From a virus (lineage: Duplodnaviria > Heunggongvirae > Uroviricota > Caudoviricetes), in IMG/VR virus record IMGVR_UViG_2684623127_000005: a stretch of DNA of 64,000 nucleotides; one strand, 5' to 3'. The notes under the pieces are model-generated. The model worked only from the letters and a program-made list of their open reading frames with translations, was not told where the DNA came from and searched no databases. Made by a program: the position numbers and the translations under genes. Shown here one piece after another: positions 4,458 to 37,181 of this stretch (position 1 is the first letter of the stretch; each line of letters begins with the position of its first letter).

Positions 4458-5210
4458 ATGGCAACACCAAATCCCCTTGAGCCGGTAAAAGGTGCCGGTA
4501 CCACTCTGTGGGTTTACAACGGCAAGGGTGATGCTTATGCAAACCCGTTGTCAGACGATGACTGGCAGCGACTGGCTAAGGTGAAGGATCTGACGCCGGG
4601 CGAGATGACGGCAGAACCCTACGATGATAACTACCTGGATGATGAAGACGCGGACTGGACCGCGACCGGGCAGGGGCAGAAGTCTGCAGGAGATACCAGT
4701 TTTACGCTGGCCTGGAAACCGGGAGAAGAAGGTCAGAAAGGGCTTATAGGCTGGTTTGAAAGCGGGGATGTGCGGGCCTATAAAATCCGTTTCCCAAATG
4801 GCACGGTGGATGTGTTCCGTGGCTGGGTCAGCAGTATCGGTAAGGCCGTGACGGCGAAAGAAGTGATCACCCGCACGGTGAAAGTCACTAACGTGGGCAA
4901 ACCTTCCGTGGCGGAAGAACGCAGCGAAATTACGCCGGCCACTGCAATTAAGGTGACACCGACATCCGGTACGGTGGCAAAAGGGAAAACAACCACCCTG
5001 ACGGTTTCTTTTGAGCCGGAAAGTGCAACCGACAAGACGTTCAGAGCGGTTTCCGCCGATCCGTCGAAAGCCACCATTAGTGTGAAAGATATGACAATTA
5101 CGGTAAACGGCGTGGCGACAGGTAAGGTGCAGATCCCTGTGGTGAGCGGAAATGGTCAGTTCGCCGCAGTGGCTGAAGTCACCGTTACTGAAGCGGGCGC
5201 TGCAGGGTAA
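4458..5210 (+). CDS. V: major tail tube protein V (with C-terminal Ig-like domain)
   Basis: [28 protein letters not shown]...[41 protein letters not shown] matches lambda gpV. Confidence 0.9.
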
Positions 5211-5223
5211 ACGGAGGTAATAC

Positions 5224-5646
5224 ATGTTTCTGAAAACAGAACAATTTGAATATAACGGTGTGTCCGTCACGCTTTCCGAATTGTCTGCGCTGCAGCGGTT
5301 TGATTATATAAAGTTTGTTTCAGACGCAGAACAACAGGAGACAACGAAGCATGATGTCGTGCACATTAACCAGCGATATCTGGAAACGGCATCCCTGCTT
5401 GTGGCGATGTCGCTATGGCATTCCCATTCCCTCAAAGGCACTCTGGCCTCTCCGGAGACAGAGATGCAGCAGATCCGCCGTGAAGTGATGCTGGGATGGC
5501 CTGCTGATGCACTGAATCAGGCAACGAACCGGGTGCTTTATCTTTCAGGTATGCTGGATAACCGGCACGATGCCGATCCTGAACCAACCGGGAAAACAGA
5601 AGCGACTGAGCCGGTAACATCAAAAAAGCATTCGAAGGCGAGCTGA
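5224..5646 (+). CDS. G: tail assembly chaperone G
   Basis: MFLKTEQFEYNGVSVTLSELSALQR... matches lambda gpG. Confidence 0.85.
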   Translation: MFLKTEQFEYNGVSVTLSELSALQRFDYIKFVSDAEQQETTKHDVVHINQRYLETASLLVAMSLWHSHSLKGTLASPETEMQQIRREVMLGWPADALNQATNRVLYLSGMLDNRHDADPEPTGKTEATEPVTSKKHSKAS

Positions 5647-5981
5647 ACTTTGTCCTGAAACTGGCGCGTGAGATGGGGAGAGCCGACTGGCGCGCCATGC
5701 TTGCCGGGATGACATCCACCGAATATGCCGACTGGCGACGTTTTTACTGCACGCATTATTTTCAGGATACCCAGCTGGATATGCATTTTTCCGGGCTGAT
5801 GTACGCCGTACTCAGCCTGTTTTTTTGCGATCCGGATATGCATCCGGCGGATTTCAGCCTGTTCGCTCCGGAGGCAGAGGAAGGACAGGCGGAGACGCCG
5901 GACGAAAATGATGTACTGATGCAGAAGGCGGCGGGCCTCGCCGGTGGAGTCCGTTTCGGGGAGGAGGGAAGGAGGTTGTGA
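5224..5981 (+). CDS. T: tail assembly chaperone G-T fusion made by programmed -1 ribosomal frameshift
   Basis: Slippery heptamer A_AAA_AAG at 5622-5628 near the 3' end of G; the -1 frame stays open to 5981 and encodes a gpT-like extension (..KKAFEGELNFVLKLAREMGRADWRAML..). Confidence 0.7.
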
Positions 5982-24073: not shown

Positions 24074-24691
24074 ATTTTATTTAATAACTCCCGTTCGTGT
24101 TTTCTCTTGTTAATGGCATCTTCAGTAAATACAGGGTTACTGATAGTGACACCAATTTCAAAACAACCTTCAGACGTATTAACGTTTGGTAATAACGTTT
24201 CCATTATCGCGTCCTCAACAATGAATTTTGTGATGCAGTGCCTGGTGCCTCCAGGTGACGTTAACCAGTTAACAATTAACGCCGGATACAGAGAATCCAC
24301 CCATAACACTGTTTTTGGTTTTAACTGTTCCGCGTGCGCTCAGCCGCATTCACCGCATCACAAAATTCACTTTAAAAAGGGCGGCAGAGCAGTCACGGAG
24401 TAAAACTGATACCGCCAAACGTCACCAGAAAATTGATAACAGAGGGCGTTGCAGCGGGGTTGTCACTTAAGCGTATGGTCAGCCTGACAACCCGGTGTCC
24501 TCAAGGGGAAGGAATAACCCCGCCATACTTACCGCCGCGCCATTTCGCGGATTGCCACAACCAGAAGCGCACGGTCGAAGAAATTTAACGACAAGACTTA
24601 TATGCAAAGGGATCTCGCCGTGCGCTTTCGTGTTATGCCCTGACTTTTCAGGGTAAATTAACCTGTGGAAACCTGTTTTTACTGGCGCTAA

Positions 24692-29903: not shown

Positions 29904-30620
29904 TTAGGTTACTTTTACGCCTATAAAGGTGTAATCATCCATTATGTTTTTCTCAATCCTTTTTCTTAAACTACTCGCAAAAGCTGTTGGTGAGAGCATT
30001 GTCTTCTCAGAAAACCTTGGTCTGACATCCCAATGCTTATAGGCACCATCAGTCATTGCATAGAGTTGAAGATAGCCATTATAAATTAGCTGGCTAATCG
30101 GAAAAGACATTAACTCAAAATTCAAATCCGTTGTATTTGATAAAGCATTCGTTAGGACTGAAGATAGCCGTTCTTTATGATTTCTTAAATTACGTAATTT
30201 ATGTTCACCAGAATCAAGGAGTTCTTGATATCTCGTTTGATCAGTGGTTAACTGATTTAGTTTATTGTTTTTATTGAAGTATACTCGGCAATCACCGGAA
30301 TGACCAATTAACACTTCATTTTTTTTGATCTGAACAATTGTTAAGGTTGTGGCAGTGCTAATATCTAAATTGTCAATTTCTTTTTTAGCTGAATGAAATG
30401 CACTTTCAATTGAGAAAAAGGAAGTGCCTAGCGTGTGTCTAATGCCACGAATGGCTGCATGAGATGCAAGCATTGAATGTTCAGAGGAACCAACCCCATC
30501 AGCTACTGCAAAGACAATGTTAAAATCGCTATCAAAAGATGGCGGTAAATAAAAGTCTTCATTTTCTTTTTTTTGGGGTTGTTTTAGGCTAAAACATGCC
30601 ATTTCAATTATGTTCTTCAT
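29904..30620 (-). CDS. PP2C-family Ser/Thr protein phosphatase
   Basis: 238 aa; PP2C signatures VADGVGS and MTDGAYK; ATG at 30620 with GGAGG SD 6 nt upstream, start lies inside 3' end of kinase gene (17-nt overlap). Confidence 0.85.
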   Translation of the reverse strand: MKNIIEMACFSLKQPQKKENEDFYLPPSFDSDFNIVFAVADGVGSSEHSMLASHAAIRGIRHTLGTSFFSIESAFHSAKKEIDNLDISTATTLTIVQIKKNEVLIGHSGDCRVYFNKNNKLNQLTTDQTRYQELLDSGEHKLRNLRNHKERLSSVLTNALSNTTDLNFELMSFPISQLIYNGYLQLYAMTDGAYKHWDVRPRFSEKTMLSPTAFASSLRKRIEKNIMDDYTFIGVKVT

Positions 30621-31398
30621 GATTTACCTCCCCCGTCACTTTTAAAAAATCTTCCAGTAACTCCCGTGTGCTTTGATATCGTTCTTCAGGCCAATGTGCG
30701 CAACATTTTGCAATCAATCTTTTTAATTTTTCACTTCTTTCTGTGGGATATATATCAGTGATAATTTTACCTGCTGCAAATATGTCACTTTGAAAAGAAA
30801 AAAGACCGCTATCATGTATTTCGGGCGCTCGATATCCATCTGTGCCCATGTGATTAGGCTTAAATTTTGTTTTGATTTCGGCCCGTAAGGTATCTCTGTC
30901 TTTTACTAGACCAAAATCAGATATTTTATACTTTCCATCGGCATAATAAAGTATGTTTCCTGGTTTTAAATCACGATGTATATAGTTGTTTTCATGTATG
31001 GTGATAATTCCTTTTAAAATCTGAGTAACAGCAGACTTCCTCTCCGCGTAGTTCATACCATTGCGGATGGCTTCATATAAGTTACACTCTGCCAATTCCA
31101 TAACAAAATAAGGTTTATCACCATTTGTATTAAATAAAACTATTGGCGCTATTGAATCATAGTTTATTCTATTGAGAGTGCATTGTGTTTTGATCTCAAC
31201 TAAAAAACGCTGTCTTAAATCAGTCAACTCTTTTATAGCGGTCTTGTCAAAGTCCGGGCAAGGTGAAAAGTATTTGCGAGCATATGTGGTCATGTGGGTC
31301 TGGGTTAAGTTATAGACATCAACCTTAAATACTTCGCCAAAACTCCCTTGTCCTAAACTGCGACCATCTTTAAGTAAATAATTACCGCACCGATCCAC
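30604..31398 (-). CDS. Hanks-type Ser/Thr protein kinase (catalytic domain only)
   Basis: 264 aa; GQGSFGEV glycine loop, ARK, HRDLKPGNIL catalytic loop, DFGL, GYRAPE activation-loop motif; GTG start with AGGGGG SD. Confidence 0.9.
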   Translation of the reverse strand: MDRCGNYLLKDGRSLGQGSFGEVFKVDVYNLTQTHMTTYARKYFSPCPDFDKTAIKELTDLRQRFLVEIKTQCTLNRINYDSIAPIVLFNTNGDKPYFVMELAECNLYEAIRNGMNYAERKSAVTQILKGIITIHENNYIHRDLKPGNILYYADGKYKISDFGLVKDRDTLRAEIKTKFKPNHMGTDGYRAPEIHDSGLFSFQSDIFAAGKIITDIYPTERSEKLKRLIAKCCAHWPEERYQSTRELLEDFLKVTGEVNHEEHN

Positions 31399-31554
31399 GG
31401 CGCCCCCTTAACTCTCAGTAATGGATTGATAAGACTGGAAAAACATGCATTACCTCCTTTTATACACGTTTGCTATTTTTATTGCAATGCCTCACCTGTG
31501 GGCACTTAGAAAGGTGAGATTCTGATGAGTCTTTAACTGATTGAATTCGTTCCA

Positions 31555-31571
31555 ATGTGGGAATCCCACAT
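31555..31571. promoter_or_regulatory. perfect 17-bp palindrome in kinase-hok intergenic region (candidate operator)
   Basis: ATGTGGGAATCCCACAT read directly. Confidence 0.3.
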
Positions 31572-31808
31572 CGGGAGAACATTACCAATAGGGATAAAAA
31601 CGATTTGTGGGAAAAGGGGAGTTAAGTAAAATTGCTGCGGGTGCTTGAGGCTATCTGTCTCAGGCATGAACACCAAAAGGCAGATAGAGAAAAGCCCCAG
31701 TTAACATTACGCGTCCGGCAAGACGCTTAACATTAATCTGAGGCCATATCTATGCTCTACACACGTAGGTTAGCCTCTTACGTGCCGAAAGGCAAGGAGA
31801 AGCAGGCT

Positions 31809-31964
31809 ATGAAGCAGCAAAAGGCGATGCTAATCGCCCTGATCGTCATCTGTTTAACCGTCATAGTGACGGCACTGGTAACGAGGAAAGACCTCTGCGA
31901 GGTACGAATCCGAACCGGCCAGACGGAGGTCGCTGTCTTCACAGCTTACGAACCTGAGGAGTAA
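31809..31964 (+). CDS. hok: Hok/Gef-family type I toxin
   Basis: MKQQKAMLIALIVICLTVIVTALVTRKDLCEVRIRTGQTEVAVFTAYEPEE is a canonical Hok; in-frame upstream extension from 31752 (mok-like leader); antisense sok presumably overlaps ~31700-31810 on minus strand. Confidence 0.85.
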   Translation: MKQQKAMLIALIVICLTVIVTALVTRKDLCEVRIRTGQTEVAVFTAYEPEE

Positions 31965-32183
31965 GAGACTGGCGGGGGAGAAATCCCTCGCCACCTCTGA
32001 TGTGTCAGGCATCCTCAACGCACCCGCACTTAACCCGCTTCGGCGGGTTTTTGTTTTTATTTTCAACGCGTTTGAAGTTCCGGACGGCGCCGGAATAGAA
32101 TCAAAAATACTTAAGTAGCGCGCAGGGAGAAGAGGGATGGACCCCGAACAGGGGAGTGCTATTTATCTGGAAGGATTCTGTTG

Positions 32184-32441
32184 ATGAGAATCGAAGAATT
32201 ACGTGAAATTTTTAGTGAAGATGGCCTCTATACTGTGCGCGTTGAGAATGGCGCTATTGTCAGCCACTGCCGTATTAAATGTTTACAGTCTCAACAAAGG
32301 AAGAGTGGAGCTGCGTTAATTCATTTTGTGGATGGGCTTGTGACGGATGGTTTTATTTTGCGTGCAAATGAATTTGTCACATCGTTGCCGTCTCTGAAAG
32401 AAGCTGGGATTAAGGCTGGTTTTTCTGCTTTTGAAGATTAG
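32184..32441 (+). CDS. hypothetical protein
   Basis: ORF with ATG at 32184. Confidence 0.4.
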   Translation: MRIEELREIFSEDGLYTVRVENGAIVSHCRIKCLQSQQRKSGAALIHFVDGLVTDGFILRANEFVTSLPSLKEAGIKAGFSAFED

Positions 32442-32510: not shown

Positions 32511-32789
32511 ATGGCGCAAAATTCCAGACTACACAATTCTGATAATTCAGCCGTCTTTGCCAGCGGGCACGGGCGGCGTTCTCATGCATTCAAATCTGAC
32601 TGGTACCAGCATCCCCCATGCACTGAAGAACAGGCCGAATGGCTCATTCAGTGTTACCGCAGGCGCGGATGCGAGGTTAAAAAAGCCCTTAGCCTCGACT
32701 ACCGTCACTGGATAATCTCCGTCAGGCCCCCTTACTCCGAACGGCCACCGCGTCCGTCCCGCACATTCCAGCAACGGATCTGGAGGTAA
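32511..32789 (+). CDS. hypothetical protein
   Basis: ORF with ATG 32511; stop overlaps SD of ydfU-like gene. Confidence 0.4.
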   Translation: MAQNSRLHNSDNSAVFASGHGRRSHAFKSDWYQHPPCTEEQAEWLIQCYRRRGCEVKKALSLDYRHWIISVRPPYSERPPRPSRTFQQRIWR

Positions 32790-36678: not shown

Positions 36679-36926
36679 TATTGCAGAATTAACCGGGTAT
36701 CAGGTACGCCCCGAAAATTTTAAATGTCTCACAATTCAGACGGTTGACAGTTGTCTGGTTTGCGGGGAGTTTGTTAAAAGAAACTGGCATGGTGAATCCC
36801 CCTGAGCGGAGGGGCATATCAGCGCAGGTGTTTCTACTCTATCCTTTCTGTGCGGGTTCAGGTGCTGATACTGAACTCACCGGGAGGCACCCGGCACCAT
36901 GCATATGGTTAACAGACACGTAGCGA

Positions 36927-36952
36927 AGCCCCTCTCCGGAGGGGCTTTTTTT
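36927..36952 (+). terminator. strong rho-independent terminator upstream of nanS-p
   Basis: AGCCCCTCTCCGGAGGGGCT hairpin + TTTTTTT. Confidence 0.6.
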
Positions 36953-37181
36953 ATGGGCAAAAAAAGCCCGCGCTGGGAGACGCGGGCGGCAAGGAATAAA
37001 CAACAAAACGTGAAGTAATATTTCAGCTGGCGAATAATACCCCATGGTAATCACTCTGCGCAACTGCGCGGCCTTTTTCGAATTGCGGGCTGTAAGTCTC
37101 CCTTCTGCCATTGTCCTGTAACTTCCGGACTTCAGCCCGCTCTTTATCTGATTCAGTACACTATCCCGGCCGGGAGGATTC

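Follow-up and report, generated by a model that had tools for sequence, protein, structure and literature searches.

A 51-residue reading frame resembling the Hok/Gef toxins lies in the intergenic DNA beside a divergent kinase/PP2C operon, and its presence raises the question of whether it belongs to a complete type I toxin–antitoxin locus, to the relic of one, or to a composite addiction or defence island of which the kinase and the phosphatase would form the other part. The preliminary description of the window (the whole 64-kb stretch of DNA analysed here) had proposed a hok/sok-type toxin locus, noting that hok loci occur in nin regions of cryptic prophages, and had suggested a composite from its pairing with the kinase/PP2C module. 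The first of these proposals is upheld by the present analysis and the second is not. Very probably, the locus is an intact member of the hok/mok/sok family, carried by a lambdoid prophage inserted next to ompW, in which the HokD allele of the toxin is combined with a complete hokW-type leader; it would act in the manner known from plasmid R1 and hokW, with the kinase/PP2C operon as a separate cargo.

The host element is a lambdoid prophage integrated beside ompW in Escherichia coli of the Shiga-toxin type. The region is 100% identical to several STEC chromosomes, including that of the O103:H2 strain 12009, in which the gene is annotated as 'type I toxin-antitoxin system toxin HokD'. The hok gene is flanked by replication genes on one side and by the DUF968/RusA/Q module on the other, and is co-oriented with the early rightward operon, which starts with a cro-like gene, includes the replication genes and extends to Q; the kinase/PP2C pair lies on the opposite strand. 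The features assigned to the locus are listed in Table 1.

Table 1. Positions in the window of the observed and predicted features of the hok/mok/sok locus.
Feature	Position	Strand	Remarks
hok promoter (predicted)	31605..31632	+	Weak; putative -35 TTGTGG (31605-31610), -10 TAAAAT (31627-31632), 6 nt before the mRNA start
Full-length hok mRNA (predicted), about 418 nt	31639..32056	+	5' end, position 1 of the RF01794 match; 3' end, intrinsic terminator
tac box GGGUGCUUGAGG	31639..31650	+	5' end of the mRNA; pairs with fbi in the full-length minimum-energy fold
Sok antisense RNA (predicted), 77 nt	31684..31760	-	Ends mapped from the annotated K-12 sokC and sokB
ucb (anti-SD) box GCCCC	31694..31698	+	Pairs with the mok SD (31740-31744) in the full-length fold
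Two TTAACATTA copies and inner hairpin	31701..31735		Arms and 18-nt insert of the Sok terminator stem
Sok target hairpin	31740..31777	+	mok SD GAGGC (31740-31744) paired with dcb GCCUC (31773-31777)
mok reading frame	31752..31964	+	70 codons, in frame with hok, same stop codon
Sok promoter (predicted)	31767..31795	-	-35 TTGCCT (31795-31790), 17-nt spacer, -10 TAACCT (31772-31767), +1 at 31760
hok Shine-Dalgarno (SD) AAGGAG	31794..31799	+	Inside the box CAAGGAGAA..AGGCYATGAA
hok toxin gene	31809..31964	+	51 aa; Pfam HOK_GEF; RefSeq WP_000813254.1, named HokD
GC-rich stem-loop	31970..31993	+	From the fold; expected protective 3' end of the processed hok mRNA
fbi box CCUCAACGCACCC	32013..32025	+	Pairs with tac
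Intrinsic hok terminator	32032..32058	+	AACCCGC-TTCG-GCGGGTT and T-run; from the terminator scan

The identification of the toxin itself was borne out. The 51-aa peptide, in keeping with a family of toxins of about 50 aa that have one transmembrane segment, matches Pfam HOK_GEF (PF01848) over profile positions 1-42/42 with an E-value of 1.2e-23 and a score of 82.9 bits, the cut-off being 22 bits; the NCBIfam Hok models also match it, with scores below their strict cut-offs. The protein is identical to K-12 HokD/RelF, and its coding sequence differs from that of K-12 hokD by a single synonymous base. The in-frame mok-like leader that had been proposed upstream likewise corresponds to mokC and mokW: its start codon aligns with both of theirs, it carries an SD of its own (GAGG at 31740-31743), and the mok and hok frames are both open. 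The predicted folds bury the hok SD in a hairpin, and the box that contains it is invariant from the R1-type loci through hokD. From the hok promoter to the hok terminator the locus spans ~31605 to ~32058; the interval of 31690-31964 in which it had been placed does lie within it, but the locus is larger.

The leader was recognised by Rfam family RF01794, which matches 31639-31814 on the plus strand with 117.1 bits (gathering score 59 bits) over model positions 1-157/157 and has no other match in the 64-kb window. Although named 'sok', this family models the leader of the sense hok mRNA and ends at the hok AUG. Upstream of it, a -10 hexamer of the form T-A-x-x-A-T, at a constant distance from GGGTGC, is invariant in the alignment (TAGAAT in 933W, TAGGAT in PPompW, TATAAT in hokC, TAAGAT in hokE), and the -35 hexamer is tentatively assigned as TTGTGG. 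The hok and Sok promoters are both weak matches to the consensus, and a consensus promoter scan flagged neither of them; the hok terminator was found. The only match of the promoter scan in the leader, a plus-strand TTAACA-18-TATGCT at 31727-31756, was set aside as a chance occurrence, two sites being seen against 0.9 expected in the region scanned. The terminator is common to K-12 hokD and PPompW and is not present in 933W. An Rfam resemblance to isrK at 31972-32053 was also rejected: at 24.9 bits it is below the cut-off of 50 and reflects a generic likeness of the hok 3' end to a stem-loop followed by a terminator. True isrK matches, of 67-75 bits, occur in other loci (L031, L033).

The full-length hok mRNA folds with a predicted energy of -172.1 kcal/mol (z = -6.4). 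In this minimum-energy fold the tac/fbi helix consists of 12 pairs around one bulged C, with a duplex energy of -21.5 kcal/mol compared with -14.2 ± 2.1 for shuffled tac. The fbi box is located 48-52 nt past the stop codon here and in hokB, 933W, PPompW and an Atlantibacter plasmid, and its pairing with tac is kept through compensatory changes in hokB (GGGUGCCUGAGA with UCUCAUGGCACCC) and in the plasmid loci; the pTP6-3 plasmid locus, whose leader is unalignable and in which the tac motif is absent in the range examined, was excluded from the comparisons. The closed state with both tac/fbi and ucb/SD pairing corresponds to the one described for R1 (PMC9841398), and it is the R1 model that forms the basis for expecting the GC-rich stem-loop downstream of hok to protect the 3' end of the processed mRNA (PMC9841398).

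Shorter segments of the leader fold differently. Within the first 52 nt, tac pairs with 31658-31667 to give a nascent, metastable hairpin, and in a 62-nt fold the ucb box and the preceding A-run pair with tac (-25.8 kcal/mol, z = -4.0). Energy minimisation of the 3'-truncated mRNA retained the metastable hairpin and the closed SD and gave no switch to the open form; therefore, the open form was judged from folds of sub-fragments, from the consensus structure in Rfam and from a fold under constraint. In the isolated leader it lies ~6 kcal/mol above the minimum-energy fold. A leader without the conserved fold elements had been named beforehand as a possible sign of a decayed locus; the tac/fbi and ucb/SD pairings, the SD/dcb hairpin and the metastable hairpin were all found.

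The antisense RNA was located by comparison with annotated relatives. Both annotated ends of K-12 sokC and of sokB project onto 31760 and 31684, and the annotated 933W sokW projects onto 31760-31690, so that three independent annotations agree. The predicted RNA opens at its 5' end with 15 single-stranded nt (GUAGAGCAUAGAUAU), continues into the long hairpin of the terminator and ends in a CUUUUCUCU tail, and its fold has an energy of -31.8 kcal/mol (z = -4.65). Its promoter has the same -35, spacer and -10 sequences as that of 933W sokW in the alignment, and a mutation in the sokW -10 abolishes antitoxin activity (PMC8621323). At the level of sequence, a Sok gene with its own promoter and terminator thus appears to cover the mok SD and start, giving a predicted antisense transcript.

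The direct repeats to which the preliminary description had drawn attention, at ~31700 and ~31726, do exist: TTAACATTA occurs exactly twice in the 64-kb window (31701-31709 and 31727-31735), compared with 0.16 occurrences expected by chance. Their proposed role in the Sok promoter did not hold, the promoter being located to the right of the repeats, inside mok; the two copies form arms of the terminator hairpin. On the Sok strand the pairing of these quasi-palindromic arms, UUAAUGUUA with UAAUGUUAA, includes two G·U wobbles at its centre, and an inner hairpin, GCGUC...GACGC, lies between the two copies. The hairpin has an energy of -28.1 kcal/mol on the minus strand and -17.8 on the plus strand, i.e. 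it is ~10 kcal/mol stronger in the antisense RNA, because the G·U wobbles turn into A·C mismatches in the sense strand. This strand asymmetry suggests that the antisense RNA is the structure under selection.

The closest characterised relative is the mokW/hokW/sokW locus of 933W and VT2-Sakai Sp5, with 93% nucleotide identity over 397 nt. The two share the in-frame mok/hok arrangement with one stop codon, the 18-nt insert in the Sok hairpin (absent in hokC, hokB and O157 PPompW), and the tac and fbi boxes. They differ in four C-terminal residues of the toxin (FTAYEPEE here, FVDYESEK in HokW), in 5 of the 18 nt of the Sok-tail/target-loop segment, where the YUNR motif is present in 933W and not here, and in the 3' terminator. 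The 933W locus is situated in an early-left accessory region near att, whereas the present one occupies a nin-like region upstream of DUF968/RusA/Q.

K-12 hokD (relF), the third gene of relBEF in the cryptic prophage Qin, shares with the present locus the Hok protein, the 3' UTR, the fbi box and the terminator, as well as the downstream synteny of a rem-like gene, DUF968 (ydfU) and Q. It differs upstream, where relBE stands in place of the hok promoter, the tac and ucb boxes, Sok and the start of mok; homology is clear only from the hok SD onwards. No relBE was found upstream of hok in the window, where a full leader is present instead. The name 'HokD' fits the protein only and not a locus of the K-12 type, and the present locus has the appearance of an intact precursor of the K-12 hokD arrangement.

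K-12 mokC/hokC/sokC (hokC is also known as gef) has a very similar leader with an identical tac box, the mok start at the position aligned with 31752 and the same in-frame arrangement with one stop codon; it is, in contrast, chromosomal and outside any prophage, has IS186 just downstream, and its Sok hairpin is devoid of the 18-nt insert. The R1 hok/sok (parB) locus agrees in its architecture, in having tac, fbi, ucb, dcb and mok, in the Sok promoter inside mok, and in the conserved box from SD to start. R1 is nevertheless plasmid-borne, its toxin is only a distant relative (44% identity between HokW and R1 Hok; PMC8621323), its tac and fbi sequences differ with compensatory changes, and its Sok hairpin also lacks the insert. 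Every family feature examined is present here, with the exception of YUNR in the target loop.

The mechanism proposed here follows the R1 and hokW paradigms, the sequence elements that it requires having been found in this locus. For R1, the folding model, the 3' processing of the hok mRNA, the toxicity of Hok and its neutralisation by Sok have been shown (PMC9841398); HokW, too, has been shown to be toxic and to be neutralised by sokW under the control of the sokW promoter (PMC8621323), a neutralisation that depends in part on RNase III and Hfq (PMC8621323). By analogy, the weak hok promoter would give rise to a stable mRNA of about 418 nt (31639 to ~32056), whose 5' tac box would be held in the metastable hairpin during transcription. 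In the finished RNA, tac would pair with the 3' fbi box and ucb would sequester the mok SD, so that ribosomes and Sok are both excluded. Slow 3' trimming would remove fbi, and the leader would refold into the tac/ucb stem and the SD/dcb hairpin. As long as the unstable 77-nt Sok is present, its 5' tail would pair with the hairpin loop and the mok start, and RNase III would cleave the duplex. Once Sok has decayed, e.g. after prophage loss, transcription shut-off or induction, mok would be translated, and with it, by translational coupling, hok, the 51-aa peptide of which would damage the inner membrane.

Such a system is likely to serve prophage maintenance, to help lysis upon induction as described for hokW-sokW, or to do both. 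It is possible, though on balance somewhat unlikely, that its main role is that of an accessory lysis or phage-release factor upon prophage induction and not post-segregational addiction or phage exclusion; the molecular system would be unchanged. Deletion of hokW-sokW halves the release of Sp5 phage (PMC8621323), and treatment with mitomycin C decreases the level of sokW RNA and increases that of HokW in a way that depends on RecA (PMC8621323). Since hok is co-oriented with the early rightward operon, read-through transcripts upon induction are also conceivable here. The lysis role has, however, been demonstrated for the Sp5 allele only, which occupies a different position in its phage genome, and the lysis and addiction/exclusion roles are not mutually exclusive.

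The missing YUNR motif merits separate consideration. The inner stem of the target hairpin contains the mok AUG and closes a 9-nt loop, CUCUACACA (31755-31763), which is complementary to the 5' end of Sok; the hairpin folds with -13.2 kcal/mol (z = -2.8) and is the counterpart of helix three in the consensus structure of Rfam. The YUNR U-turn motif is absent from this loop and is the sole canonical RNA element found missing. The loop reads CUCU here, as against CUGA, CUAG, CUCG or CUCA in all other aligned loci, and YUNR is present at the aligned position in 933W, PPompW, hokB, the R1-type locus, the Atlantibacter plasmid and E66, i.e. in all other aligned members. For hok/Sok specifically, the motif matters in that it speeds up binding; it is not a criterion of family membership. 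More generally, YUNR is an element of initial RNA-RNA recognition (PMC2943612). Its absence means that Sok binding could be slower, or could be initiated otherwise, in this allele.

The differences from close alleles are concentrated in the same 18-nt Sok-tail/loop segment (7/18 and 5/18, compared with 0-4 per 40-60 nt elsewhere), and this concentration hints at a diversification of pairing specificity. STEC prophages carry 5-8 hok/sok copies per genome. A rather unlikely extension joins two readings: that the hok/sok copies of STEC prophages are diversifying in the Sok-tail/target-loop segment, and that the hok module acts as a stabilising anchor beside a hot spot of cargo insertion.

The absence of YUNR could also be taken to indicate a decayed relic, comparable to K-12 hokD/relF or to the IS-disrupted hokA, hokC and hokE of K-12, with an intact toxin ORF that has lost its regulation or expression. 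Many chromosomal hok loci are indeed inactivated: the whole hokD leader is replaced by relBE in K-12, IS186 lies just downstream of hokE as well as of hokC, IS150 lies upstream of hokA, and a sister prophage of the present one has an IS element in its hok leader. In the window, however, all other regulatory elements are present and uninterrupted, the two reading frames are open, the Sok promoter is the same as in sokW, whose activity has been demonstrated experimentally, and no IS element lies within 31600-32060. Decay of the locus is thus very unlikely, and an intact hok/mok/sok locus remains the preferred reading.

The relation to the neighbouring operon was assessed from the DNA between them and from the distribution of both modules. 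The distance from the GTG of the kinase (31398, minus strand) to the ATG of hok (31809) is 410 bp, in agreement with the ~400 bp of shared intergenic DNA described earlier. In a composite addiction or defence island, the two would be co-regulated by way of this intergenic DNA, or hok/sok would serve specifically to stabilise the kinase cassette. The linkage is tight within E. coli: essentially every kinase/PP2C cassette is found directly upstream of hok (kinase in 32 genomes, junction n = 33), including a 92%-diverged cassette allele (E66) and prophages with another hok 3' flank (O145) or other replication genes. The kinase, moreover, resembles the PADLOC defence kinases mad6 (1e-37) and PD-T4-6 (1e-32). 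A relationship to the 933W Stk kinase was considered and discarded, tblastn against the phage collection giving a single Escherichia phage match, Flotzy (39%).

The distributions of the two modules are, however, very different. Of 5,426 complete E. coli genomes, 4,942 have a hok locus (median two copies, maximum ten; roughly 12,900 places of the hokD/hokW type in all), compared with 32 that have the kinase/PP2C pair, so that hok almost always occurs without the kinase. Homologues of the kinase were also examined for nearby hok/sok by ORF listings, Rfam scans and searches for a conserved DNA signature. Within 3-4 kb of five relatives with 66-83% identity (from Scandinavium, Buttiauxella and viral contigs), neither a sok match nor the hok signature was found, and kinase/PP2C pairs at 39-83% identity occupy other islands or phage slots with no hok nearby. 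In phage Flotzy, the 39%-identical kinase and a co-oriented downstream gene are located between the lysis and terminase genes, again without hok. Co-retention across diverged homologues therefore fails, neither the relatives with up to 83% identity nor the Flotzy kinase having hok/sok beside them.

The 410-bp intergenic DNA is itself a mosaic of two independently conserved flanks: ~100 nt beside the kinase are conserved with Scandinavium, and to the right of ~31541 the DNA is shared with the O157 PPompW prophage, which has no such kinase; 933W also shares the hok module itself, which starts at ~31593. The slot upstream of hok holds different genes in different prophages, namely relBE in K-12 Qin and paa/adfO in O157 PPompW, and a close physical linkage of ~240 bp suffices for joint persistence within one phage lineage. 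The differing distributions, the mosaic intergenic DNA, the hok-less relatives and the varied cargo of the slot make the composite island that had been suggested very unlikely. The simplest reading is that accessory genes insert into a slot next to a resident hok module, the kinase/PP2C pair being neighbouring cargo.

The locus is thus an unremarkable type I toxin–antitoxin locus of the hok/mok/sok family that appears to be intact and had been annotated before. It carries little weight as a discovery: RefSeq annotates it, both Rfam and Pfam recognise it, and a relative of 93% identity has been characterised experimentally. If the diversification of the Sok-tail/loop segment is true, cognate pairs would be insulated from one another, and the U-turn-less allele might use a different or slower initial recognition. 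The value of the locus is that of a reference: it would show the ancestral, intact state of the hokD/relF locus that is truncated in K-12, and it indicates that the neighbouring kinase/PP2C cassette is to be judged as an independent two-gene module and not as part of a toxin–antitoxin composite.

The order of the genes downstream of hok in the window (32181-32441 and 32511-32789) agrees with that of Qin, the cryptic prophage of K-12, which runs hokD - rem - (small ORF) - ydfU (DUF968) - Q, and the window looks like an intact version of that part of Qin. In K-12, relBE replaces the hok leader and rusA is missing. Two small RNAs, DicF and STnc100, which are typical of Rac/Qin-like prophages, were also identified using Rfam, the DicF match adjoining the position of dicB as annotated in the identical prophage. 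A further match to isrK (31972-32053, plus strand) spans the hok 3' UTR stem-loop, the fbi pairing box and the terminator; its score of 24.9 bits (E = 0.027) lies below the cut-off of 50, and the match is probably a likeness of shape only.

Features of the window, with their coordinates
Feature	Position	Strand	Remarks
DicF RNA	24379-24430	minus	Rfam, 76.7 bits
Ser/Thr kinase and PP2C phosphatase	29904-31398	minus	two genes, overlapping reading frames
Promoter-like TTGCAA-17-TATAAA	within 31399-31497	minus-strand sense	
GGAGG, then short ORF (ATGCATGTTTTTCCAGTCTTATCAATCCATTACTGA)	within 31399-31497	minus-strand sense	
Near-perfect palindrome CCAATGTGGGA/TCCCACATCGG	31552-31574		about 30 nt 5' of hok -35
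Allele-difference cluster	31746-31763		mok-start, target-loop and Sok 5'-tail segment; comparison with E66 and 933W
STnc100 sRNA	36758-36958	plus	Rfam, 148 bits; 3' of the Q antiterminator gene

The kinase/PP2C cassette gives the impression of a mobile unit in its own right, a candidate for anti-phage defence. Among the defence models of PADLOC, its kinase matches mad6 (1e-37), PD-T4-6 (1e-32) and Stk2. The cassette is rare in E. coli (32 of 5,426 genomes). Scandinavium and Buttiauxella carry it too, at 80-83% identity, within small islands. In phage Flotzy, another slot holds a kinase of 39% identity, followed by a co-oriented gene with no assigned function. The roughly 100 nt 5' of the kinase GTG (31399-31497) are likewise kept in Scandinavium and Buttiauxella and may constitute the operon's own promoter and leader.

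The palindrome upstream of the hok promoter has no T-run after it and could serve either as a binding site for a protein or, in RNA, as a hairpin. It is retained through compensatory changes in the O157 prophage PPompW, as CCGATATGGGAA/TTCCCATATCGG, and is absent from the Stx2 phage 933W. In a sister prophage, that of E. coli OkiPb01712, the kinase and hokD are separated by an IS-type integrase pseudogene (4859-5932 of the comparison locus L008). Its end falls about 72 bp short of the hok start, within the hok leader, an arrangement similar to the IS inactivation of hokA, hokC and hokE in K-12.

Compared with its closest relatives, E66 (a locus with a diverged allele of the kinase/PP2C cassette) and 933W, the hok allele of the window is changed at 7 and 5, respectively, of the 18 positions of the allele-difference cluster, against 0-4 changes per 40-60 nt outside it. 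No YUNR U-turn motif is present in the target loop CUCUACACA, whereas every other family member examined carries YUNR at the aligned loop position. Such clustered changes may mean that the several copies of hok/sok present per genome have diversified in their pairing specificity.
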